A stretch of 64,000 bases of DNA, taken from NCBI GenBank assembly GCA_037200965.1, contig JBBCGK010000001.1, forward strand, positions 64,001 to 128,000. Direction: 5' to 3'. This stretch comes from a bacterium (lineage in GTDB: Bacteria > Patescibacteriota > Minisyncoccia > Phycocordibacterales > Phycocordibacteraceae). The notes beneath the pieces were generated by a model. That model searched no databases. It was not told the origin of the DNA and saw nothing but the letters and a program-made list of their open reading frames with translations. The position numbers and the translations under genes were made by a program. This document shows, in pieces, positions 11,426 through 63,771 of this stretch (position 1 is the first letter of the stretch; every line of letters begins with the position of its first letter).

Positions 11426-12430
11426 TTGAATTCTAGCTTGAAACGCAACAACCCGTATTGAAAAGCGCATACCCGCAGGTACGCTAGGAGTGTTGAATCA
11501 CCTAAGCACCAACGGGTATGCATACACACAATACGCGCGACATGCGCGTTTCGCTAGGCGCGCTCCTGCGCGCTGGTGTGAAGAAAGCTGGGATCGCGCG
11601 GCAACTGGGCGTCCACCGCTCGACCATCTCAAGGGAGTTGAAACGGAACGCGAAGAAGAACGGGCGGTATCACGCCACGCACGCGGACGTGCGTGCGAAG
11701 GCACGCCGCATGAAGAGCAAGGAGGCGGGACGCCTCCTTGCAAACAATCAGCAGTTGGCTGACCTTGTCGAGGCACTCCTTGACCCACTCGTCTCTCCAG
11801 AGGTGATCGCACACCTTCTCGACATATCGCACGAGACGATATACGCGTGGCTATATCGCACCCGTCCTGATCTGTTGGCTCGTCTGCCGCAGCGAGGAAG
11901 GAAGCGCCGCCGATATGGCTCAAAGCGTACGCAGAAACAAGGATGGACCAAGAACGTGCGTTCCATTGAGGAGCGCACAGAACCTGGCTGGGAGGGCGAT
12001 ACCGTCAAAGGCGCAGGTCGTGAACGCATCCTCACCCACGTGCACCAGAGCTTGTATCTCGTTGCCGACCTAATCCCGAACGGCACGGCAGATGTCGTGC
12101 ATGCGGTACTGAAGTCGCATCAGAAAGTCACCGGGACCATCACGTACGACCGCGGGAGCGAGTTCGCACTCTGGCAGTTCATTGAACGTGATACCGATGC
12201 CACCGTGTACTTCGCACACGCACACCATCCGTGGGAGCGCGGGAAGAACGAGAATACCAATGGCCGCCTGCGGCGACCATTCCCCAAACGGCTGAACCTG
12301 GGTACCATATCCAAAGACGACCTTGCGGACGTGGTGGACCTCATGAACCACACGCCGCGGAAGTCTCTCTCCTGGCAGACCTCGTGCGTGCGCTTTGGGA
12401 AGGCGTGTTGCGTTTCAGATTAGAATTCAA
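11426..12430 (+). mobile_element. IS30-family insertion sequence, copy 1 (about 1005 bp)
   Basis: Left IR TTGAATTCTAGCTTGAAACGCAACAAC (11426-11452) and right IR GTGTTGCGTTTCAGATTAGAATTCAA (12405-12430) are near-perfect inverted repeats; they flank the transposase; inserted 2 bp after the TAG stop of the upstream gene. Confidence 0.85.
11518..12423 (+). CDS. IS30 family transposase
   Basis: HTH (GVHRSTISRELKRN), DDE region and the characteristic HHPWERGKNENTNGRLRR motif; stop codon lies inside the right IR. Confidence 0.9.
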   Translation: MHTHNTRDMRVSLGALLRAGVKKAGIARQLGVHRSTISRELKRNAKKNGRYHATHADVRAKARRMKSKEAGRLLANNQQLADLVEALLDPLVSPEVIAHLLDISHETIYAWLYRTRPDLLARLPQRGRKRRRYGSKRTQKQGWTKNVRSIEERTEPGWEGDTVKGAGRERILTHVHQSLYLVADLIPNGTADVVHAVLKSHQKVTGTITYDRGSEFALWQFIERDTDATVYFAHAHHPWERGKNENTNGRLRRPFPKRLNLGTISKDDLADVVDLMNHTPRKSLSWQTSCVRFGKACCVSD

Positions 12431-15357: not shown

Positions 15358-18210
<2,853 letters not shown>

Positions 18211-18246
18211 CGCAAAACGGCCCTAGGTGTATAAATAAGACCATAT

Positions 18247-19320
18247 ATGGCAACTAAAACGAAGACGGGCGCGAAAAGCACAAAAGTAGGCGGCGCTGCC
18301 GTCACTTTCGACAATGCGGGACTCGTGAAAAAGCTCCTTGCGGAGGTGCCTGAGCGCGCCCGCGAGGTGCTTATTTTCCGCTTCGGGCTTGGCACGAGCG
18401 CTACCCGCGAGACCCTTGAAGCTATCGGCGACCGCTGGGGCGTCACCCGCGAGCGCGTTCGCCAGATCGAGAACGCGGGCCTTGAAGCGGTACGCGCTTC
18501 GAAGGCGTTCGAAGACGCCGAAGAGTCGTTTTCGCAGCTTGAGGCGTATATCGAGTCGCTTGGCGGCATCGTTCCCGAGGACGAGCTTCTCGGCGGCCTC
18601 GCAAAGGACGAAAAGAGTCGGAACCGGTTCCGCTTCCTTCTCGTCGTCGGCAGCGCCTTCTTCCGCGAGCGCGAGACCGATGATTTCTATGCCCGCTGGC
18701 ACGTCGACCATAAGACGGCCGAGAAAGTGCACGATGCCCTCACGAGCCTCTATTCCTCGCTTGAGGACGAAGACGTGCTTCCGGAAGGAGAACTCCTCTC
18801 GCGCTTTCTCGAGGAACTCAAGGGAGTCAACACCGCATACCAGACCGAATCCATCCTCAAGCGCTGGCTCTCGCTCTCGAAGACCATCGCCTGCAATCCG
18901 CTTTCCGAGTGGGGCCGCGCTTCGTGCTCGTCGGTCCGCACCAAGGGTATCCGCGACTACGCATACCTTGCCGTAAAGCAGGCGGGGAAGCCGCTTCACT
19001 TCAGCGAGGTGGCGAAGGCGATCAGCGATCTCTTCTCGAAGAAGGCGCATGTCGCGACGACCCATAACGAGCTCATCAAGGACGAGCGCTTCGTGCTCGT
19101 CGGCCGCGGCCTCTACGCGCTTAAGGAGTGGGGCTATGCGCCGGGAATCGTGCGCGAAGTCGTCGCAGATGTTCTCAAGAAGAACGGTCCGATGACCAAG
19201 GAGCAAGTGATCGCGGAGGTGAAGAAGAGCCGGTACGTGAAGGACAATACCGTGCTCGTGAACCTCAACGACACCCGCTACTTCAAGCGCCAGAAGAACG
19301 GCACGTACGCGCTCGCGTAA
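18247..19320 (+). CDS. DNA-binding protein with sigma-70 region-4-like HTH and HARE-HTH domains
   Basis: ERAREVLIFRFGLGTSATRETLEAIGDRWGVTRERVRQIENAGLEAVR resembles sigma70 region 4; C-terminal KPLHFSEVAKAISDLFSKKAHVATTHNELIKDERFVLVGRGLYALKEWGY resembles a HARE-HTH. Confidence 0.5.
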   Translation: MATKTKTGAKSTKVGGAAVTFDNAGLVKKLLAEVPERAREVLIFRFGLGTSATRETLEAIGDRWGVTRERVRQIENAGLEAVRASKAFEDAEESFSQLEAYIESLGGIVPEDELLGGLAKDEKSRNRFRFLLVVGSAFFRERETDDFYARWHVDHKTAEKVHDALTSLYSSLEDEDVLPEGELLSRFLEELKGVNTAYQTESILKRWLSLSKTIACNPLSEWGRASCSSVRTKGIRDYAYLAVKQAGKPLHFSEVAKAISDLFSKKAHVATTHNELIKDERFVLVGRGLYALKEWGYAPGIVREVVADVLKKNGPMTKEQVIAEVKKSRYVKDNTVLVNLNDTRYFKRQKNGTYALA

Positions 19321-19342
19321 CCTTTTCCCGATACAGCGCTTC

Positions 19343-19366
19343 GACGCGCCCCTTGCGGGGCGCGTC
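19343..19366 (+). terminator. GC-rich hairpin, weak U-tract (possible terminator)
   Basis: gacgcgcccc-ttgc-ggggcgcgtc; followed directly by a TATACT -10 for the next gene. Confidence 0.4.
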
Positions 19367-19384
19367 GTGCGTTATACTTAAGAC

Positions 19385-20740
19385 GTGAGCATGCTCCCTT
19401 TCTACGACGCGCTTGAAAAGAAAATTAAGAAATCGAAGGAGCAATCGGGCTTCGGGCTCGCTCCGTGGCCTTTGTTCTTCGCGGGGCTTGCAATGCTCTT
19501 CGCGATACTTGTCGTCGCGCCGTCCATCATCCTGCCCGCGCTTTCCTTGGCCTTTTTCCTCCTGCCTTTGTGGCTTCCGCTCGCGCTTGTGGGTACGGCT
19601 TGGGAGATATGGGTCGACCTTAAGCGTTCGGAGTTCATCGCGTCCCAGGAATACATCCTTCTTGAGATCAAACCCCCGCGCATGATCGAGAAGACGCCGC
19701 TTGCCATGGAGGCCGTGCTCTCAGGCCTCCACCTCTCGCCCGGCGAAGGGACCTGGTATAAGAAGTATATTAAGGGCGCGGTGCGGCCATGGTGGTCGTT
19801 CGAAATCGCGTCGCTTGAGGGCCAGGTGCACTTTTTCGTCTGGACGCGCGCGGGATACCGCCGCATCATCGAGACCCAAATATACGCCCAGTATTCGGGT
19901 GCGCAGGTCGTCGAGGTACAGGACTATACGAGGATGATTAATGCCGACCCCGGCGAATGGGAAATATGGGGCTGCGACTTTACCGAAAGCAAGGCCGGTC
20001 CGTACCCGATCCGCACCTACGTCGACTACGGTCTCGACAAGGTGGCAAAGGAACCCGAGCAAGTGGATCCTCTCTCGAACCTCATCGAGTTCATGGGCTC
20101 AATGGGCAAAGGCGAGTATCTTTGGCTCCAGCTGCCGATACGCGTGCATAAGGGAGAAAAGTACAAGAAGCTCAATAAAGAGGGGAAGTCCTATACTTGG
20201 AAAGACGAGGCGAAAGAAGTTGTCGAAGAGCTCCGGAAGAAGACCGTAACGAAGTTCAAGGATCCGGCGACGGGCGTCTCGATGGAGGGATTCCCGAACC
20301 CGACCAAGGGTCAGATGGAGACGATCGCCGCCATCGAACGGAACGTTTCGAAGCTGCCGTTTGACGTCGGTGCCCGCGGGGTTTACATTTCGCGCCCCGA
20401 GAGCTTTTCACCCACGACGATCGCGGGACTCACCGGCATTTTCAAGCAGTTCAGCTCGGAGGAGTGGAACGGCTTCAAGCCCGCACGCTGGATGACGGCT
20501 TTCAACGATTACCCGTGGGAATTTAATGTCGACCACCGCAAGAATAAGACCCGCAAGGCACTTATCGAAGCCTATCGCCGCCGGAGCTTCTTCTATCAGC
20601 CTTTCAAAGGCGAATACATGACCATGAGCACCGAGGAGCTTGCGACCATTTACCATATCCCGTCGGGCGCTACCGAGACGCCGGGCTTCCAGCGCATCCA
20701 GTCCTCGACGTCGGACGCGCCGGTTAACCTTCCGACCTAA
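19385..20740 (+). CDS. hypothetical membrane protein (2 N-terminal TM plus large soluble domain)
   Basis: 451-aa ORF; TATACT -10 at 19373-19378, 6 nt before GTG 19385 (ATG 19391 in frame). Confidence 0.55.
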   Translation: MSMLPFYDALEKKIKKSKEQSGFGLAPWPLFFAGLAMLFAILVVAPSIILPALSLAFFLLPLWLPLALVGTAWEIWVDLKRSEFIASQEYILLEIKPPRMIEKTPLAMEAVLSGLHLSPGEGTWYKKYIKGAVRPWWSFEIASLEGQVHFFVWTRAGYRRIIETQIYAQYSGAQVVEVQDYTRMINADPGEWEIWGCDFTESKAGPYPIRTYVDYGLDKVAKEPEQVDPLSNLIEFMGSMGKGEYLWLQLPIRVHKGEKYKKLNKEGKSYTWKDEAKEVVEELRKKTVTKFKDPATGVSMEGFPNPTKGQMETIAAIERNVSKLPFDVGARGVYISRPESFSPTTIAGLTGIFKQFSSEEWNGFKPARWMTAFNDYPWEFNVDHRKNKTRKALIEAYRRRSFFYQPFKGEYMTMSTEELATIYHIPSGATETPGFQRIQSSTSDAPVNLPT

Positions 20741-31799: not shown

Positions 31800-33056
31800 A
31801 TGCCGCGAACCCTTAACGACATCATCCCGCCCTCGCGCAGGCGCAAGATGGAAGAGGAAGGCGCGCTTCCCCCGGAAGCTTCATACCGGCAGGCTCCGCC
31901 TCCGCAGCAGCCGATGTACGGCGGCCCGTCCCCGCGCCGCTTCCCGTACGCGACCGCGCTCATCGCGCTCGTCATCATCGCCCTTTCGGTGGGTGCACTC
32001 TATCTTTTCTCCGGGGCGAAAGTGACGATCGACCCGTCAAGCGACACGGTCGCCGTCGCCGGAACCTATAGCGCGACCGCTTCGGGAGGGGCGCTGCCGT
32101 TTGAAGTGATATCAGTCCAGAAAATCGGCACGCAGTCGGTGCCGGGAGAAGGAACCGAGACGGTGAATCAGGCGGCGCAAGGTACCGCGACCGTGTTCAA
32201 CACCCAAAAGACCCCGCAACGGCTTATTACCAATACCCGCTTCGAGACTCCGGCCGGGCTTATCTTCCGTATCCATGCGCCGATCGTCGTTCCTGCCGCC
32301 AAGGACGCGAATACGCCGGGAAGCGTAACCGCGACGCTCTATGCCGACGCCGCGGGAGAAAGCTATAACATCGGCGCGACGACTTTCACGCTTCCGGGCC
32401 TTGCGGGCTCTCCGGCGTTCACCGCCGTCACGGCAAAATCATCGGGCCCGATGGCCGGAGGGTTCACGGGTACCCGCCCGAAGGTCGCGGAGGCGACCGC
32501 GAACACCGCGCGGGGAACTCTCAAGACCGCGCTCCAGGGCGATCTTGTAACCGCGCTTAAGGCGGAAATCCCTGCCGGATACGTGCTTCTTCCCGGCGCG
32601 ACGTTCACTTCGTATCAGGACCTTCCGAACGCCGCGGGCGCGAACGGCACGTCGGTTGATGTGAAGGAGCAGGGCACCGCGACCGCCGTCGTATTCCCGT
32701 CCGCGCCGCTTGCCTCCGCGATCGCCGCGCAGGTGCTCCCGGGCTATAACGGCGAGCCGGTGAACATCCCGGACGCGGGGAAGCTCGTGCTCACCCCTTC
32801 GACCGGAGCCCCGGCGGAAGGCGCGACGACCTTCGACTTCACGCTCTCGGGAAATACCACGATCGTCTGGACCGTGGATCCGGCGCGCATCGCCTCGGCG
32901 GTCGCGGGAAAGACCCGTGAAGCCGCGCAAGTGGTGCTTTCGGGCTTCCCCGAAGTGAAGCGGGCGCTTCTGGTGCTCCGGCCGTTCTGGACGGGCGCCT
33001 TCCCGGGAGACCCCAAAGACATCGACGTGGTAGTTAACCCGCCGTCCGGCAGTTGA
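31800..33056 (+). CDS. hypothetical membrane-anchored extracellular protein
   Basis: Pro-rich cytoplasmic N-terminus, single TM (ALIALVIIALSVGALYLF), Thr/Ala-rich ectodomain. Confidence 0.5.
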   Translation: MPRTLNDIIPPSRRRKMEEEGALPPEASYRQAPPPQQPMYGGPSPRRFPYATALIALVIIALSVGALYLFSGAKVTIDPSSDTVAVAGTYSATASGGALPFEVISVQKIGTQSVPGEGTETVNQAAQGTATVFNTQKTPQRLITNTRFETPAGLIFRIHAPIVVPAAKDANTPGSVTATLYADAAGESYNIGATTFTLPGLAGSPAFTAVTAKSSGPMAGGFTGTRPKVAEATANTARGTLKTALQGDLVTALKAEIPAGYVLLPGATFTSYQDLPNAAGANGTSVDVKEQGTATAVVFPSAPLASAIAAQVLPGYNGEPVNIPDAGKLVLTPSTGAPAEGATTFDFTLSGNTTIVWTVDPARIASAVAGKTREAAQVVLSGFPEVKRALLVLRPFWTGAFPGDPKDIDVVVNPPSGS

Positions 33057-54564: not shown

Positions 54565-55580
54565 TCGAATTCCAGCCTGAAACGCAACAACTGACTTCTT
54601 GAAAAGCGCATACCCGCAGGTACGCTAGGAGCGTTGAACCACCTAAGCGCCATACGGGTATGCACACGCATCTTAACCGCGACCGCAGGGTCGCGCTAGC
54701 CGCTTTGAAAAAAGCGGGAATGAACCAGTCAAGAATCGCGAAGGAGCTCGGCGTACACCGCTCGACGATCAGCCGGGAGCTCCTGCGAAATGCACAGAAG
54801 AACGGTCGATACCATTCGATATGCGCGGATCGCCTCGCGCGCGGCCGAAGGAAAGGGTCGAAGAGAGAATCGCGCCTCCTTGAGAATGATGCGGGTCTGG
54901 AGACGCTCGTCGAGGCGCTCCTCGATCCTCTGGTATCTCCCGAACTGATCGCGCACGAACTCGGTATCAGCCACGAGACCATATACGCATGGATCTCGCG
55001 CTCAAGGCGCGATTTGCTGCCGCGGCTTCCGCAGCGCGGGAAGAAACGGAGACGATACGGCTTAAAACGCTCGAAGAAACAAGGCTGGACACGGCAGGTG
55101 CGCTGCATCGGGGAGCGGCCCGAAGCAGGAGAGAATTGGGAGGGCGATACCGTCAAAGGACGGACGAGAGCGAGACTGCTCGCGCACGTCGAGCGGCGAA
55201 GCCTCTATACGGTCGCCGATCTCATGCCGAACGGTACTGCAGATTCGGTGCATGCAGTATTGAAAAAACATCAGAAGATATCCGGTACGGTCACGTATGA
55301 CCGCGGCAGCGAGTTCGCGCTCTGGCAGATGATCGAGCGCGATACCGGCGCAGCGATCTATTTTGCCGATCCGCACCACCCCTGGCAGCGCGGGAAGAAC
55401 GAGAACACTAACGGAAGACTGAGAAGAATGTACCCGAAGCGTTTCGACTTCGGTACGATACGGCAACGGGACCTCGACGCCGTGGTGTCGCTCATGAACC
55501 ACACCAAGCGAAAGTCCCTCTCTTGGCGGACGCCGTGTTCGCTCTTCAGGGGTGAGTGTTGCGATTCAGATTAGAATTTA
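54565..55580 (+). mobile_element. IS30-family insertion sequence, copy 2 (about 1016 bp), inserted in the ftsW-murG intergenic region
   Basis: Left IR ...GAATTCCAGCCTGAAACGCAACAAC and right IR GTGTTGCGATTCAGATTAGAATTTAA; same orientation as copy 1; about 85-90% IR identity. Confidence 0.85.
54660..55574 (+). CDS. IS30 family transposase (about 70% identical to copy 1)
   Basis: GVHRSTISRELLRN HTH; HHPWQRGKNENTNGRLRR; 304 aa. Confidence 0.9.
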   Translation: MHTHLNRDRRVALAALKKAGMNQSRIAKELGVHRSTISRELLRNAQKNGRYHSICADRLARGRRKGSKRESRLLENDAGLETLVEALLDPLVSPELIAHELGISHETIYAWISRSRRDLLPRLPQRGKKRRRYGLKRSKKQGWTRQVRCIGERPEAGENWEGDTVKGRTRARLLAHVERRSLYTVADLMPNGTADSVHAVLKKHQKISGTVTYDRGSEFALWQMIERDTGAAIYFADPHHPWQRGKNENTNGRLRRMYPKRFDFGTIRQRDLDAVVSLMNHTKRKSLSWRTPCSLFRGECCDSD

Positions 55581-59506: not shown

Positions 59507-59989
59507 TTGACAATCAAACTGTTACCGGTGCGCCGCCTGATGGCACCATCCTTCCCCTCAAAGCCTGTCGAGATGGCGCTCACTCTCGATACCCCGGAAG
59601 GAGAACTATTCCTTACGGGCGAATCTCGACGGAACCTCCGTAAGAAGATCGCGAGGCAACTTGCAAGGCTTGCCTACAATTCGGTCGAATTTGGAAAGGA
59701 TCGGGTTGTGTACATTGTGACTCCCGTGAACACGGAGAACGAAAGTTGCCTCGTCCTCGATTTGCGTGCCACAGAAAGCGCCTTCGATATGTGGGTGCGC
59801 GAAGGCACTCAATGCGCGGAGCAGGTTTCGCTGTTCGCCCAGGTGCTCGCAGCGGGAAACAAACCCAATCCAAGATTCCCGATAGCTTGGTGGGCTCCAA
59901 AACAACTCGTGTTCTGGTCTTTTCAGCGGAAGGTCGCCGACGCATTCTGTAACGCCGCTTCGGATCTACCGCTGATTCCGTGCATGTAA
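59507..59989 (+). CDS. hypothetical protein
   Basis: 160-aa ORF; TTG start 9 nt after AGGAGAG; AT-rich promoter-like region upstream; terminator downstream. Confidence 0.4.
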   Translation: MTIKLLPVRRLMAPSFPSKPVEMALTLDTPEGELFLTGESRRNLRKKIARQLARLAYNSVEFGKDRVVYIVTPVNTENESCLVLDLRATESAFDMWVREGTQCAEQVSLFAQVLAAGNKPNPRFPIAWWAPKQLVFWSFQRKVADAFCNAASDLPLIPCM

Positions 59990-60007: not shown

Positions 60008-60045
60008 CCGCTTCGCGGCTTCGGCAGCGAAGCGGTTTCTTATTT
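60008..60045. terminator. hairpin terminator between convergent genes
   Basis: ccgcttcgc-ggcttcggca-gcgaagcgg followed by tttcttattt. Confidence 0.65.
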
Positions 60046-60666
60046 ATTCCTAAGATCGTGCGACTTCCACAGCGCAAGGCACGCATAGCTGCGGTGCGGG
60101 CTCCATGACTCTGCGATTTTTAGAAGCTTCTCGCGCGGAACGCCCTTCTTGAGTTTATAAATCCGCTCCATCGAGCGTACGAGGCCGAGATCGCCGACGG
60201 AGAAGACATCGGAGCGCCCGAGCGCGAAGATGAGGAACATCTCCGCCGTCCATGCGCCGATACCCCAAACCGAGCTTAAGGAGGCGATGGCCTCGGCTTC
60301 CGGGAGACGCTTGAGCGCGAGGAGGTCGAGAGACTTGGTTTCGACCGCCTCCGCAAGCGACTTGAGCGTCTTCGCCTTCGCTCCTGAAAGTCCCGCGGCG
60401 CGAAGGGACGGGAGGGAAGCGGCGAGGATCGCCGCGGGAGTAACGCTCCCGCCGCAGGCCGCTACGACGCGTTGCCATATCGCGCGGGCCGCGCCTGTCG
60501 CAAGCTGCTGGCCCACGACCGAGCGAGAGAGCCGCTCAAAGAGTCCTTGCCTAGTCCGTACCTGCCCGAGCTCCGGCGGAAGCTCCTTTCGGACGGCCCG
60601 GGCGGCCGCATGGAGCTTCGGGTCCGCCCGCCTGAAGTGCATAAGCGCCTTGTCCCGTCCGGTCAT
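60040..60666 (-). CDS. HhH-GPD superfamily DNA glycosylase (AlkA-like DNA-3-methyladenine glycosylase II)
   Basis: ...LSSVWGIGAWTAEMFLIFALGRSDVFSVGDLGL... helix-hairpin-helix/Gly-Pro-Asp signature with catalytic Asp. Confidence 0.8.
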   Translation of the reverse strand: MTGRDKALMHFRRADPKLHAAARAVRKELPPELGQVRTRQGLFERLSRSVVGQQLATGAARAIWQRVVAACGGSVTPAAILAASLPSLRAAGLSGAKAKTLKSLAEAVETKSLDLLALKRLPEAEAIASLSSVWGIGAWTAEMFLIFALGRSDVFSVGDLGLVRSMERIYKLKKGVPREKLLKIAESWSPHRSYACLALWKSHDLRNK

Positions 60667-60686
60667 TACCCCCTATACTACTACCA

Positions 60687-60875
60687 ATGCTGAAGCTCAT
60701 ATTCTGGATCGTCGTCGGCGTCCTGGCGCTCTCTTTCTTCGGTATTTCCCTTCGCGCCATCATCACCTCGCCGATCGGCCAGGACAACCTCGGCTTCCTA
60801 TGGATGCTCGTCGTCCAGGGCTGGGATGCGATCGTGCAGTTCTTCACCTCGCTCCTTCCGCACCAGTTCGTCTAA
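60687..60875 (+). CDS. small membrane protein
   Basis: 62 aa, two TM; TATACT -10 at 60674-60679, 7 nt before the ATG. Confidence 0.45.
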   Translation: MLKLIFWIVVGVLALSFFGISLRAIITSPIGQDNLGFLWMLVVQGWDAIVQFFTSLLPHQFV

Positions 60876-60886
60876 CGTCCCCGCCG

Positions 60887-62371
60887 ATGCAGAGAGGCTT
60901 CTCGACCCTGGAGGCCGTGCTCGCGATGGCAATATTCGTTTCCGCCATCGCCGCGGTTATGCTTACCGAGTCCGGAAACCAGTCGCTTCTTGCGGACGGC
61001 GCGCTTGCCGGCAGCGCAAGAGAAGATGCCCGGGCGCTCCTTGCCGAAGAAGCGGCTCGCGCACTCAAAGATTTCAATCTCGTGAATCCCATACGGAACG
61101 CTTCTGCGAGCGCATCCGCGCGCGTGTCGCTTCTGCCCGATTATCTGACCAAGCTCGTGACGGCCGCGGCAACGTGGAAGGATGAATTGGGCCGGACGCA
61201 CACCACCGAGCTTTCGACTCTTCTCACTAATTTCGAACACGCGACCGGCGGCGATACCTGCAGTTCCGCGCTCGAAGGCGACTGGAGCTCGCCGACAGCC
61301 AAAAGCTACGCGCTTTCTCCCGGAGATCTCCTTCCTGGCAATGAAATCGGCGCGGCGGTGAGCGGCCTCGATGCATACCACGACACGCTCTATGTCACAG
61401 CTGACGAAGGAAGCGGCGCCACGCTCTTCCTCTTCGATACGTCAAGCGAAGGCAAGCCCCGCTTTATCGCAAGCGTCGATAACGCGCGGGGAACCGATGG
61501 CGGGCTCGCGGGCGTCCTTGCCGCCGGAGATTATGCGTACCTCGCGGATAGCCACAGCCGCGATGCGGACTGCATGCCGGGTACCGACTGCGCGCAGCTT
61601 CAGGTCGCGGACGTGAAAGACCCGAAACGGCCGGAGATTGTCGCAAGCTATCTCATACCGACGACGACGCCCTCGTTCGTGAAAGGGTCGGGAGGACAGG
61701 CGGCGGGGAAAGCGCTCGCGTATCAGGACGGGTTTCTGTATCTCGGGCTTTCGAAGACCGCGAACGGGCCGGAATTCAATGTGATTGACGTGCGGGATCC
61801 CGGGTCCCCAAAATGGCTTGGCGGATACGGCATCGGCCGGAGCATAAACGCGATCGTTATTGACAGAGGCCATGCATACCTCTCGACCGACGATAACAAG
61901 AGCGGCGGGAGGGCGGTCGCGGTACTCGATATTAGCGACCCGAAGCATCCGTATCAGATCGCGAGCTGGAGCGCGCCCGGAGCCGGATTCGCAAACGGCA
62001 TACGGAAAATCGGCGATACCCTCTATCTGGGCCGCTCGTACGCAAGCGGCGCGCAGGAAGAATTCCATGAACTCGATGCATCCCGTCCGGAAGAAGGTCT
62101 TCCGATACTTGCAGGTGCCGACATCGGAACTGCCGCACATCACGCAAGCGTGCGATCGCTTATCATCCGCGACACGCTCGCTTTTCTTCTCACGAACGAT
62201 GATATCGAACTTTGGGACATCGGCGACGCGGAACATATCGGCCCCGCCGCCGCGCCGATACCGCTTCCGGAAGGAAGCCAGGGAATCGCGCTTGACTGTG
62301 AAGGCAACAGGCTTTATGCCGCTTCAAACGCGGGCGATACCGGCTACGTCACGATACTTTCCGCCCGCTAG
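60887..62371 (+). CDS. type IV pilin-like protein with prepilin N-terminal methylation motif fused to a large LVIVD/beta-propeller repeat domain
   Basis: MQR|GFSTLEAVLAMAIFVSAIAAV (G at -1, E at +5); then about 450 aa with repeated ...AYLAD..., ...LYLGLS..., ...AYLSTDD..., ...LYLGRS..., ...LYAASN... blocks (LVIVD-repeat-like). Confidence 0.65.
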   Translation: MQRGFSTLEAVLAMAIFVSAIAAVMLTESGNQSLLADGALAGSAREDARALLAEEAARALKDFNLVNPIRNASASASARVSLLPDYLTKLVTAAATWKDELGRTHTTELSTLLTNFEHATGGDTCSSALEGDWSSPTAKSYALSPGDLLPGNEIGAAVSGLDAYHDTLYVTADEGSGATLFLFDTSSEGKPRFIASVDNARGTDGGLAGVLAAGDYAYLADSHSRDADCMPGTDCAQLQVADVKDPKRPEIVASYLIPTTTPSFVKGSGGQAAGKALAYQDGFLYLGLSKTANGPEFNVIDVRDPGSPKWLGGYGIGRSINAIVIDRGHAYLSTDDNKSGGRAVAVLDISDPKHPYQIASWSAPGAGFANGIRKIGDTLYLGRSYASGAQEEFHELDASRPEEGLPILAGADIGTAAHHASVRSLIIRDTLAFLLTNDDIELWDIGDAEHIGPAAAPIPLPEGSQGIALDCEGNRLYAASNAGDTGYVTILSAR

Positions 62372-62372
62372 C

Positions 62373-62795
62373 ATGAAAGGCTTCACGCTCATCGAAATGC
62401 TCGTGTATCTGGGCCTTGTCACGCTCATCATGGCGGGCGTCACGGGAGCGGCGCTTAGTATCAGGGAATCGAACGGGCGGGATGCCGTCCGCGCGCTTAT
62501 AGCCGAGGAAGGGCTGTTTCTCCTCGCAAAGATCGACCAGGCGCTTGAGGAAGGGAAAGAAGAGACCCTGGTATGGGATGCGAAGGAGGAAACGCTCTCG
62601 CGTATGAGTGACCCGGGAGAAGCCGTACGGCTCAACGGCGGAAATGTGCGGGTATCCGCGTTTTCCCTTGAAATGATACCGGCCGCCCTGAACGCGCCCG
62701 CGCACACGAACGCGGCGCTTACGCTCGCCGCGACTTCCTCAAGCGGCGCGCTTCTTCGCCAACAGTTCACGACAACCTATTATGCAAAACCTTAG
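62373..62795 (+). CDS. type IV pilin / pseudopilin
   Basis: MK|GFTLIEMLVYLGLVTLIMAGV class-III signal; 140 aa; the listed ORF 61860 is the same frame from an earlier start. Confidence 0.7.
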   Translation: MKGFTLIEMLVYLGLVTLIMAGVTGAALSIRESNGRDAVRALIAEEGLFLLAKIDQALEEGKEETLVWDAKEETLSRMSDPGEAVRLNGGNVRVSAFSLEMIPAALNAPAHTNAALTLAATSSSGALLRQQFTTTYYAKP

Positions 62796-63216
62796 GCATC
62801 CTCGCGGATTCGCCGCGCTCATCTCCGTTCTTATCATCTGCGCCATTCTCGTCTCGATCACGCTCGCCGTCGGTCTTTCGTCCTTCTTCGCCCGGGCCGA
62901 TCTGCTCGATGCGGAAGGCAAGGCGATATCCCGGAATCTCGCGCGCGGATGCGTTGACGCCGCCATCCTTCGGCTTGCGAAGGACGGATCATACAGCCCG
63001 AAGGGCGAGCGGATCGCGGTCGGTGACAGGGGGTGCCGTATCGAGTCGATAACCTATGCCAGGAACAATGTGCTTGTCACCACAAGCGCGGAGGTGAACG
63101 GCACATATACGATTCTTCAAGCCGCGGTACGGGAGAAATCAGAAGCGCAGCGGATGAAGCCTGCTATCCCCATCTTCACCGTCCTCGATGTCGCCGAAAT
63201 CACGGAAGCGCCGTGA
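62782..63216 (+). CDS. pilin-like protein (non-canonical N-terminus)
   Basis: MQNLRHPR|GFAALISVLIICAILVSITLAV hydrophobic N-terminal helix after Gly, but +5 is Ser not Glu; 2 Cys in the C-terminal domain. Confidence 0.5.
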   Translation: MQNLRHPRGFAALISVLIICAILVSITLAVGLSSFFARADLLDAEGKAISRNLARGCVDAAILRLAKDGSYSPKGERIAVGDRGCRIESITYARNNVLVTTSAEVNGTYTILQAAVREKSEAQRMKPAIPIFTVLDVAEITEAP

Positions 63217-63228
63217 TACATTTCCGAT

Positions 63229-63711
63229 ATGAAAACGAACGGCTTCACGCTCATCGAAATACTTATCGTCATCGGCATGATCGCCATACTGTCGGGCGTG
63301 GTGCTCGTCGCCGTGAATCCCGTCCGGCAGTTCGCGCAGGCCCGCAACACCCAGCGGACCGCGAACGTGAGCGCGATCTTAAACGCGATCGGCGAGCGCA
63401 TCGTCGACAACAAGGGCGTATTCCAGGGAGATGACGGATCGTGCAGCGCGGCGCTCCCGCAAAGCGCGACTGTCATGAAGTCGGGCGGAGGCTACGATAT
63501 CCGTTCCTGCCTCGTCCCGACCTACATCAGCGAACTCCCGTTTGACCCGCTTACGGGCTCGAATGCCTGCGACGGCGGCGCTTCCTGCAAAAGCTACGAC
63601 ACCGGGTATACCGTCCGGCAGGATTCCGAAACGCTCCGCATCAGCGTCTGCGCTCCGGAGGGGGCCGAGCCTGCGATCGAGGGAAGTTCGGAAATGTGCC
63701 TGACGAGGTAA
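63229..63711 (+). CDS. type IV pilin (major-pilin-like, Cys-rich C-terminus)
   Basis: MKTN|GFTLIEILIVIGMIAILSGV; 6 Cys in the C-terminal globular region. Confidence 0.8.
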   Translation: MKTNGFTLIEILIVIGMIAILSGVVLVAVNPVRQFAQARNTQRTANVSAILNAIGERIVDNKGVFQGDDGSCSAALPQSATVMKSGGGYDIRSCLVPTYISELPFDPLTGSNACDGGASCKSYDTGYTVRQDSETLRISVCAPEGAEPAIEGSSEMCLTR

Positions 63712-63724
63712 TAAAAATGGAAAA

Positions 63725-63754
63725 CCGCTCCGCCAGGGGAGGCTGGCGAAGCGG
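63725..63754 (-). terminator. rho-independent terminator for the convergent minus-strand gene
   Basis: Minus strand: ccgcttcgccagcc-tcccc-tggcggagcgg followed by ttttccatttttat. Confidence 0.6.
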
Positions 63755-63771
63755 CTCCACATGCGAAACGG

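Follow-up and report, generated by a model that had tools for sequence, protein, structure and literature searches.

A run of four pilin genes at 60887-63711 of the window (the whole 64 kb stretch analysed, positions 64,001 to 128,000 of contig JBBCGK010000001.1, from a Patescibacteriota bacterium of the family Phycocordibacteraceae) begins with a gene, here called G1, whose product is best explained as a core minor pilin of the GspI/PilI (PilV) type that is extended C-terminally by an LVIVD beta-propeller. The operon itself, the I-type propeller pilin, a cap subunit without the usual glutamate at position +5, the conserved cassette to which these genes belong, and a cognate ATPase and platform protein in the same genome are all well supported. 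On balance we think it probable that the four genes are the distal half of a Patescibacteria type IV filament cassette, and that the propeller pilin sits at the filament tip and binds a host cell or another surface. For the steps that this reading needs, namely prepilin processing, an I-J-K complex, a fibre of the fourth pilin, tip display and adhesion, we infer the course of events rather than observe it.

The pilin operon and the fold of its first product

A six-frame motif scan of the window returns exactly four prepilin-like N-termini, all of them in the consecutive plus-strand genes G1 to G4, and the clustering is therefore not a matter of chance; the type IV pilin gene cluster of the original prediction is real. 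The open reading frame (ORF) listing and its translation place five closely spaced plus-strand genes within 60687-63711. As G1 and G2 are separated by 1 nt, G2 and G3 overlap by 14 nt, and G3 and G4 are separated by 12 nt, G1 to G4 look like a single operon. The prediction let the cluster start at 60687, which is the ATG of a separate small ORF, here called s62, and not of the propeller pilin; the span is otherwise confirmed. The genes and the parts of G1 are as follows (arrows mark predicted cleavage).

60887-62371, + strand: G1, 494 amino acids (aa), N-terminus MQRG↓FSTLEAV
60887-61069, + strand: leader MQRG and helix alpha1 of G1, predicted cleavage between G4 and F5, Glu+5 = E9, helix residues 4-61
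61112-61228, + strand: pilin-head sheet of G1, three-stranded beta-sheet, residues 76-114
61229-61294, + strand: linker of G1, residues 115-136, conserved GGDTC motif, Cys125
61295-62368, + strand: propeller of G1, residues 137-494, seven blades, LVIVD pattern
62373-62795, + strand: G2, 140 aa, N-terminus MKG↓FTLIEML
62782-63216, + strand: G3, 144 aa, N-terminus MQNLRHPRG↓FAALISV
63229-63711, + strand: G4, 160 aa, N-terminus MKTNG↓FTLIEIL

G1, G2 and G4 show the class III prepilin pattern, in which a short leader of polar or basic character ends in Gly and is followed by Phe at +1 and Glu at +5, and all three residues are conserved in the families of these proteins. Within the G1 family, where conservation of G-1 and E+5 had been proposed as a check, the motif G↓F-(S/L/A)-T-(L/I)-E is kept while the leader varies in length, and E9 is present in at least 90% of sequences. 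Two type IV pilin profiles were used, Pfam N_methyl (PF07963, cut-off 21.2 bits) and TIGR02532. N_methyl scores 24.0 bits on G2 and 23.3 bits on G4, both above the cut-off, and G4 also exceeds the cut-off of TIGR02532 with 23.0 bits. The N_methyl model is short and insensitive, and matches 10 of 67 G1-family members at E <= 0.01. The fourth class III-like N-terminus, that of G3, is present as predicted, but it has an isoleucine at +5 (G↓FAALIS). This deviation is a family trait: the G3 family keeps G-1 and F or Y at +1, and has I or M at +5 in 33 of 46 members and E in just one.

The AlphaFold2 model of G1, built from a 67-sequence alignment (predicted local distance difference test, pLDDT, 92.3; predicted template modelling score, pTM, 0.88), runs from a helix (residues 4-61) through a sheet (76-114) and a linker with Cys125 into seven blades. 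Its N-terminal part has the lollipop fold of type IV pilins, an alpha1 helix of about 50 residues on a beta-sheet head. This pilin module is GspI/PilI-like; its top fold matches are type II secretion pseudopilins, and major pilins and other minor pilins score lower. G1 is also, like GspI and PilI (PilV), the first gene of a trio that ends in a member without Glu5. The curated models for GspI, XpsI and ComGE do not match it (NCBIfam gspI E 0.26, XpsI E 0.097, far below the cut-offs).

In the C-terminal part of the model, 27 strands sort into seven tandem four-stranded blades, with strand 137-142 completing blade 7, so that the propeller is closed. The blocks that had been read as LVIVD-like repeats from the letters alone (AYLAD, LYLGLS, AYLSTDD, LYLGRS) turn out to be the B (second) strands of blades 2 to 5. 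Because 64 of 67 full-length G1 homologues match LVIVD (PF08309; IPR013211, confirmed to be the LVIVD repeat) at E <= 0.01, with a best E of 6.7e-19, membership is clear from the sequences at the level of the family; the Pfam model Beta_propel also matches G1, below its threshold. Cys125 and Cys471 (blade 7) are present in all 67 sequences, and Cys229 and Cys235 in about two thirds of them. Cys125 and Cys471 probably form a disulfide that ties the linker to blade 7, as would suit a protein outside the cytoplasm. Conservation within the propeller is lowest in the BC loops (1.88 bits) and DA loops (1.81 bits), which share one face, compared with 2.59 bits for strands and 2.16-2.38 bits for the other loops.

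Foldseek with the whole model against the Protein Data Bank (PDB) retrieves generic WD40-like propellers only, without any functional lead, and the G1-family profile finds nothing better than E about 0.02 among PDB sequences, hence no solved relative by sequence. Homology to PilY1 was considered and rejected, since there is neither a domain match nor a fold match near the top; the PilY1/PilC family (IPR008707) consists of non-pilins with a Sec signal peptide and a C-terminal propeller domain, a description that G1 does not fit.

G2 is a canonical prepilin with orthologues at the same position in all relatives, and on synteny only it would take the PilJ/GspJ place of a tip trio. G3, whose family has two invariant cysteines in addition to the missing glutamate, is a candidate for the apical cap subunit of the GspK/PilK type; GspK matches at its N-terminus are weak (E 0.12 for G3, E 0.0057 for the orthologue in locus L006). 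The I-like fold of G1, the gene order and the Glu5-less G3 together suggest that G1, G2 and G3 correspond to the PilI-J-K trio that initiates the tip. Profiles of the G2 and G3 families run against PDB sequences return generic pilin N-termini or noise only, and do not confirm the J and K assignments.

G4 is the best conserved of the four pilins, with 45-73% identity to its orthologues. Its codon usage (codon adaptation index, CAI, 0.63; GC content at third codon positions, GC3, 0.81) is nearer to that of highly expressed genes than that of G1 to G3 (CAI 0.51-0.54, GC3 0.67-0.70). Its matches to PDB sequences are weak, none better than E about 0.02, and are to major pilins. Because of these three features we take G4 to be likely the major pilin, which would form the fibre.

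The cassette in Patescibacteria and its split form in this genome

The four genes belong to a cassette of seven, in the order T2SSE ATPase (E, about 390-450 aa), T2SSF platform (F), a pilin that we call pA (145-180 aa), the LVIVD pilin (LV; G1 here), pB (G2), X (G3) and pC (G4). A locus scan with a 10-sequence alignment of the G1 family as query, in which each species was represented by a single genome, gave 42 loci, every one of them from Patescibacteria. Their record titles include Kaiser-, Adler-, Doudna-, Lloyd-, Nomura- and Zambryskiibacteria, Paceibacterota, Minisyncoccia and "uncultured Candidatus Saccharibacteria". According to family hidden Markov models (HMMs), the seven genes stand in one order and on one strand in nearly every locus with enough flanking sequence, and in several metagenome contigs as well. 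The best G1 matches in species-representative genomes (40-41% identity) come from Kaiserbacteria and other Paceibacteria-type Patescibacteria.

In alignments to GspE and PilB the match of the cassette ATPase begins at about residue 100, and it is devoid of their N-terminal domains. It scores 483-508 bits on GspE and 253-256 bits on ComGA (cut-off 300), and stays below every equivalog cut-off. The platform is GspF/PilC-like (166 bits on ComGB, cut-off 240), and pA has weak matches of the GspH type. A Com (type IVd) operon, with a ComGA ATPase, ComGB and ComGC to ComGG, is not what these genes amount to, since ATPase and platform stay below the ComGA and ComGB cut-offs and the pilins show weak N-terminal matches only.

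The X gene, to which G3 belongs, is the variable member of the cassette: its product has 103-170 aa in most loci and 657-1022 aa in about ten. Long copies occur in L006 (12012-14030), L012, L015, L018, L021, L027, L035, L047 and L050 (our locus numbers). A VWA domain (26.2 bits) makes the L006 copy a second modular pilin in the cassette and recalls the VWA domain of PilY1.

Some loci have further neighbours of note. Two relatives carry a SpaA-like protein of 809 aa and a CAP-domain protein at the flanks of the cassette (L003 13781-17335; L004 4224-6980 and 13275-15704), the SpaA-like copy of L003 having a peptidoglycan-binding domain in addition. In L004, five T4SS_pilin (PF18895) genes follow in a run a few kb 3' of the cassette (17738-20440). 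These neighbours may be more surface or attachment genes clustered with the cassette. A DsbA/thioredoxin-like gene lies within 8 kb 5' of the cassette in L003 (1114-1716) and L006 (1843-2556); it is of interest as all cassette pilins carry conserved cysteine pairs, and could be a coincidence.

The proteins of G1 to G4 are identical to MEJ0053243.1 through MEJ0053246.1, which are encoded on a 960,259-bp contig (G1 is WDN10_00750) and annotated by NCBI as hypothetical proteins (G1 and G3) and as 'type II secretion system protein' (G4). In this genome the cassette is split. Upstream of G1 the window and the closest relative (L007, 60% identity) have MurG, GltX, an M23-like protein and s62 instead of E, F and pA. 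The arrangement ParB-E-F-pA-LV-pB-X is still unbroken in L053, a relative at 58% identity; in another, at 47% identity, pA-LV-pB-X stands with no E or F. The 64 kb window contains no pilB, pilC or pilD. A query with a Kaiserbacteria ATPase gave no match from the 960 kb contig among the 120 matches listed; with the L053 ATPase as query, the 960,259-bp contig that holds the window yielded a 387-aa GspE/PulE ATPase, 67% identical to that of L053. The suspected pilB and pilC counterparts are thus present, as a GspE-type ATPase and a GspF-type platform. They lie in the other half of the cassette:

L054 8950-13416 (contig JBBCBH010010897.1, about 719-723 kb): ParB, E, F and pA

The genome accordingly has ATPase, platform and an H-like pilin, the latter being pA (MEJ0053382.1, 152 aa, N_methyl 26.7 bits). 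No remnant of G1 was found near ParB-E-F-pA. The accession numbers end in 382 (pA), 383 (F) and 384 (E), as against 243 to 246 for G1 to G4; this numbering suggests that about 140 genes separate the two halves and that their orientation is opposite, as would result from a single inversion that broke the cassette between pA and G1. A gene of the zeta-toxin family directly follows pA and overlaps its stop codon.

The combination of pilin and propeller is common, and its description as unusual did not survive the database searches. A word-indexed search gave 140 clusters, mostly of 480-550 aa and full length, few of them named (Paceibacterota or Pacebacteria, PulG, PilV, FimT). In a profile search, 43,703 of 1.84 billion representatives matched at E <= 1e-3 and 8,382 at E <= 1e-30, totals that include giant LVIVD-repeat proteins. 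Among the best 150 matches, most are full-length in a single stretch, with 470-560 aa and a pilin N-terminus, and some have C-terminal extensions up to about 1070 aa. By these sequence counts, the G1-type family has hundreds to thousands of members, with a fixed cassette position across Patescibacteria.

Flanking features and other genes of the window

The pilin genes are bordered by three further features.

60687-60875, + strand: s62, 62 aa, hydrophobic, no pilin motif
60650-60679, + strand: sigma-70-like promoter match (TTGTCC, 18 nt spacer, TATACT), just 5' of s62
63721-63758, scored on the - strand: GC-rich hairpin with 16-bp palindromic stem, a consensus match only

The s62 product has no Pfam family, and the idea that it is a degenerate pilin was dropped, since the cleavage motif (G-F-x-x-x-E) is missing. 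It is 77% identical in L007, where it has the same position, and its CAI of 0.70 is the highest of the operon. It is confined to the lineage with the split cassette, in which E, F and pA have been lost upstream. The promoter match is a possible operon promoter; the scan found 3 sites where 1.5 are expected in shuffled sequence, so that a consensus match alone is weak evidence. The hairpin sits between G4 and the convergent downstream gene and is likely a bidirectional terminator.

A longer frame of 713 aa (60230-62371) was rejected as the G1 gene. Its first 219 codons overlap an opposite-strand gene for an HhH-GPD glycosylase (60040-60666), and the homologues begin at the prepilin motif, which puts the start at 60887.

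The remainder of the window is housekeeping: ATP synthase, tRNA synthetases, DnaK/DnaJ, MraY, FtsW, MurG, GltX and an M23 peptidase. The gap from the peptidase gene to that of the glycosylase holds a 160-aa ORF (59507-59989, + strand) without Pfam family, whose CAI (0.39) and GC3 (0.61) are the lowest among the genes checked. It is a gene call in the Logan contig and absent from L007, and may be a recent acquisition or no real gene. Three plus-strand ORFs, at 19385-20740 (451 aa), 31800-33056 (418 aa) and 29-1075 (348 aa), have the GC3 of typical coding sequence (0.74-0.77) and no Pfam family at E <= 0.001. The plus-strand genes 11518-12423 and 54660-55574 are paralogues (68% protein identity) with N-terminal HTH_38/HTH_23, and the second copy only has a sub-threshold integrase core (rve, 27.1 versus 32.6 bits); we take them to resemble IS30-type transposases.

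Proposed role of the propeller and comparison with known systems

We suggest a model in which G1, G2 and G3 would form a tip-initiation trimer in the membrane, beneath which the GspE/PilB-type ATPase and the GspF/PilC-type platform would polymerise G4. The propeller would thereby end up at or beside the filament tip and could bind a ligand on a host cell or surface. By analogy with PilY1, with PilB and PilC of Streptococcus sanguinis and with PilX2 of TM7x, it would be displayed there as an adhesin, and the fused domain would play, covalently attached, the part that in type IVa pili falls to a separate, non-covalently bound propeller adhesin, PilY1/PilC. The pilus-tip adhesin of the original prediction is therefore plausible as far as the tip location goes, given the GspI/PilI-like module, the I-J-K order and the Glu5-less cap.

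Several observations weigh against this model. All structures used are predictions of single proteins. The Pfam check that had been proposed succeeded for G2 and G4 but not for G1, which (like G3) has no N_methyl match and scores 17.5 bits on LVIVD, below the cut-off of 20.2. For J and K the assignments draw on the absence of Glu5, the order of the genes and weak HMM matches at the N-termini, and for G4 as major pilin the argument is conservation and codon usage alone. A prepilin peptidase (PilD, Peptidase_A24), the third assembly gene expected elsewhere in the genome, was not located in the stretches read, which are the window and 21 kb around the ATPase. Finally, hardly any cassette lacks the propeller pilin, and its sequence identity is 35-60% between deep lineages, which presumably have different hosts. 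A conserved propeller together with a variable cap fits a structural or priming role at least as well as host-specific adhesion.

This last point leads to a serious alternative, which we nevertheless rate as rather unlikely: the propeller could be a hub that stabilises or licenses the tip complex or blocks retraction, like the C-terminal propeller of PilY1, with specificity residing in the G3-family cap. The variation of that family from 103 to 1022 aa and its ability to carry a VWA domain are the pattern expected of a host-specific adhesin, and the PilY1 propeller has been discussed as accelerating or stabilising tip assembly (PMC13533445). In the present genome, however, G3 has just 144 aa and no extra module, making the propeller the only large exposed domain. 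The least conserved elements of the propeller, its BC and DA loops, lie on one face, and TM7x filaments form without PilX2 while host binding drops (PMC11623550), both of which speak for binding rather than assembly.

A DNA-uptake pilus of the Com kind, whose tip, propeller included, would capture extracellular DNA for nucleotide-auxotrophic cells, seems quite improbable to us. Gene content and order do mirror comGA to comGG, with ATPase, platform, five pilins and no PilMNO or PilT in the cassette, and the ATPase, without long N-terminal domains, aligns over the whole ComGA model. Yet this ATPase scores far higher on GspE and PilB than on ComGA, the propeller-bearing T4P-2 of TM7x does not contribute to competence (PMC11623550), and no DNA-binding feature was identified; the fold matches are generic seven-bladed propellers, among which YncE is no functional signal. 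It is very improbable, in our judgement, that G1 acts outside a filament, be it as a membrane-bound surface lectin or enzyme-like propeller whose pilin-like helix, cleaved or not, serves as the anchor, or in a short pseudopilus that pushes proteins through the wall as in type II secretion. The pseudopilin matches of the pilin module and the lack of a retraction ATPase in the cassette would suit such a role. They have to be set against the conserved prepilin motif, with a Glu5 needed for packing of subunit against subunit, and against the fixed position of the gene among pilins beside an assembly ATPase and platform. Moreover, to our knowledge, Patescibacteria have no outer membrane or secretin that a pseudopilus could serve.

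The adhesive tip pilin is the interpretation that we prefer. There is next to no knowledge of host attachment in the uncultivated Patescibacteria of the Paceibacteria type. Type IV pili head the list of candidates, and experimental tests have so far been confined to Saccharibacteria. In this context the G1 type is a very common and well-defined predicted tip subunit, with a confident model, a place in an I-J-K trio and a cassette found in many candidate phyla. Its propeller domain could serve as a reagent to fish for ligands or hosts, and as a marker of this filament type in metagenomes. A bolder proposal, which we put forward tentatively and consider doubtful in its full extent, is that the seven-gene cassette represents a distinct, Patescibacteria-wide class of minimal filament with a PilY1-style propeller fused to PilI, and that the universal propeller and not the variable cap is the key device by which ultra-small cells of the Paceibacteria type recognise and hold their hosts.

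The N_methyl plus LVIVD architecture is already catalogued, and G1 is an uncharacterised modular minor pilin of that kind. About 30 proteins in which 1 to 13 copies of IPR013211 come after IPR012902 are contained in Dataset S1 of Raynaud et al. (2021; PMC8179133), and the authors cite an 860-residue protein of Candidatus Falkowbacteria in which LVIVD is a "motif of unknown function". Among the papers searched, we found none that discusses LVIVD in Patescibacteria, and the single one to mention LVIVD as well as pilin concerns Tenderiales. The catalogued proteins were counted, without structure, operon context or role, whereas G1 can be described as a closed seven-bladed propeller on a GspI-like pilin; the I-type subunit with a fixed cassette position is a useful refinement. 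Like G1, the modular pilins PilB (vWA) and PilC (lectin) of S. sanguinis have a small pilin module, a short linker and a bulky module with predicted tip location, and PilB demonstrates that adhesive function can reside in modules added to pilins (PMC8179133).

The nearest experimental parallel, likewise from Patescibacteria, is PilX2 of the T4P-2 of Nanosynbacter lyticus TM7x (Saccharibacteria), a minor pilin bearing a seven-bladed propeller, which was put forward as a tip adhesin, and whose deletion halves host binding while filament extrusion continues (PMC11623550). G1 shares with it the C-terminal seven-bladed propeller and the pilin-only locus apart from the machinery, a likeness by description and not by sequence comparison. 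The PilX2 propeller is made of RCC1 repeats, that of G1 of LVIVD repeats, and PilX2 was reported without a recognisable PilD signal peptide, unlike G1 with its canonical G-1, F+1 and E+5.

The closest counterparts of the pilin module are GspI/EpsI/XcpV and PilI/PilV, which also come first in an I-J-K trio ending in a Glu5-less subunit. Known GspI proteins have about 100-130 aa and no extra domain, and their sequence similarity to G1 is negligible. Synteny of the pilI-J-K order holds almost without exception, Glu+5 is missing from every PilK homologue, PilK forms the apical subunit, and the PilY1 propeller rests on top of the PilIJK trimer (PMC13533445). PilY1/PilC and G1 would therefore have in common a beta-propeller above a PilI-J-K complex, with variable adhesive modules (VWA) in the same system. 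PilY1, however, is a Sec-exported non-pilin attached by a C-terminal strand added to PilK, whereas the G1 propeller is covalently fused to an I-type pilin. G1 may thus be a natural case of a propeller adhesin that is fused to a core minor pilin instead of being docked by strand addition, which bears on models of tip assembly.

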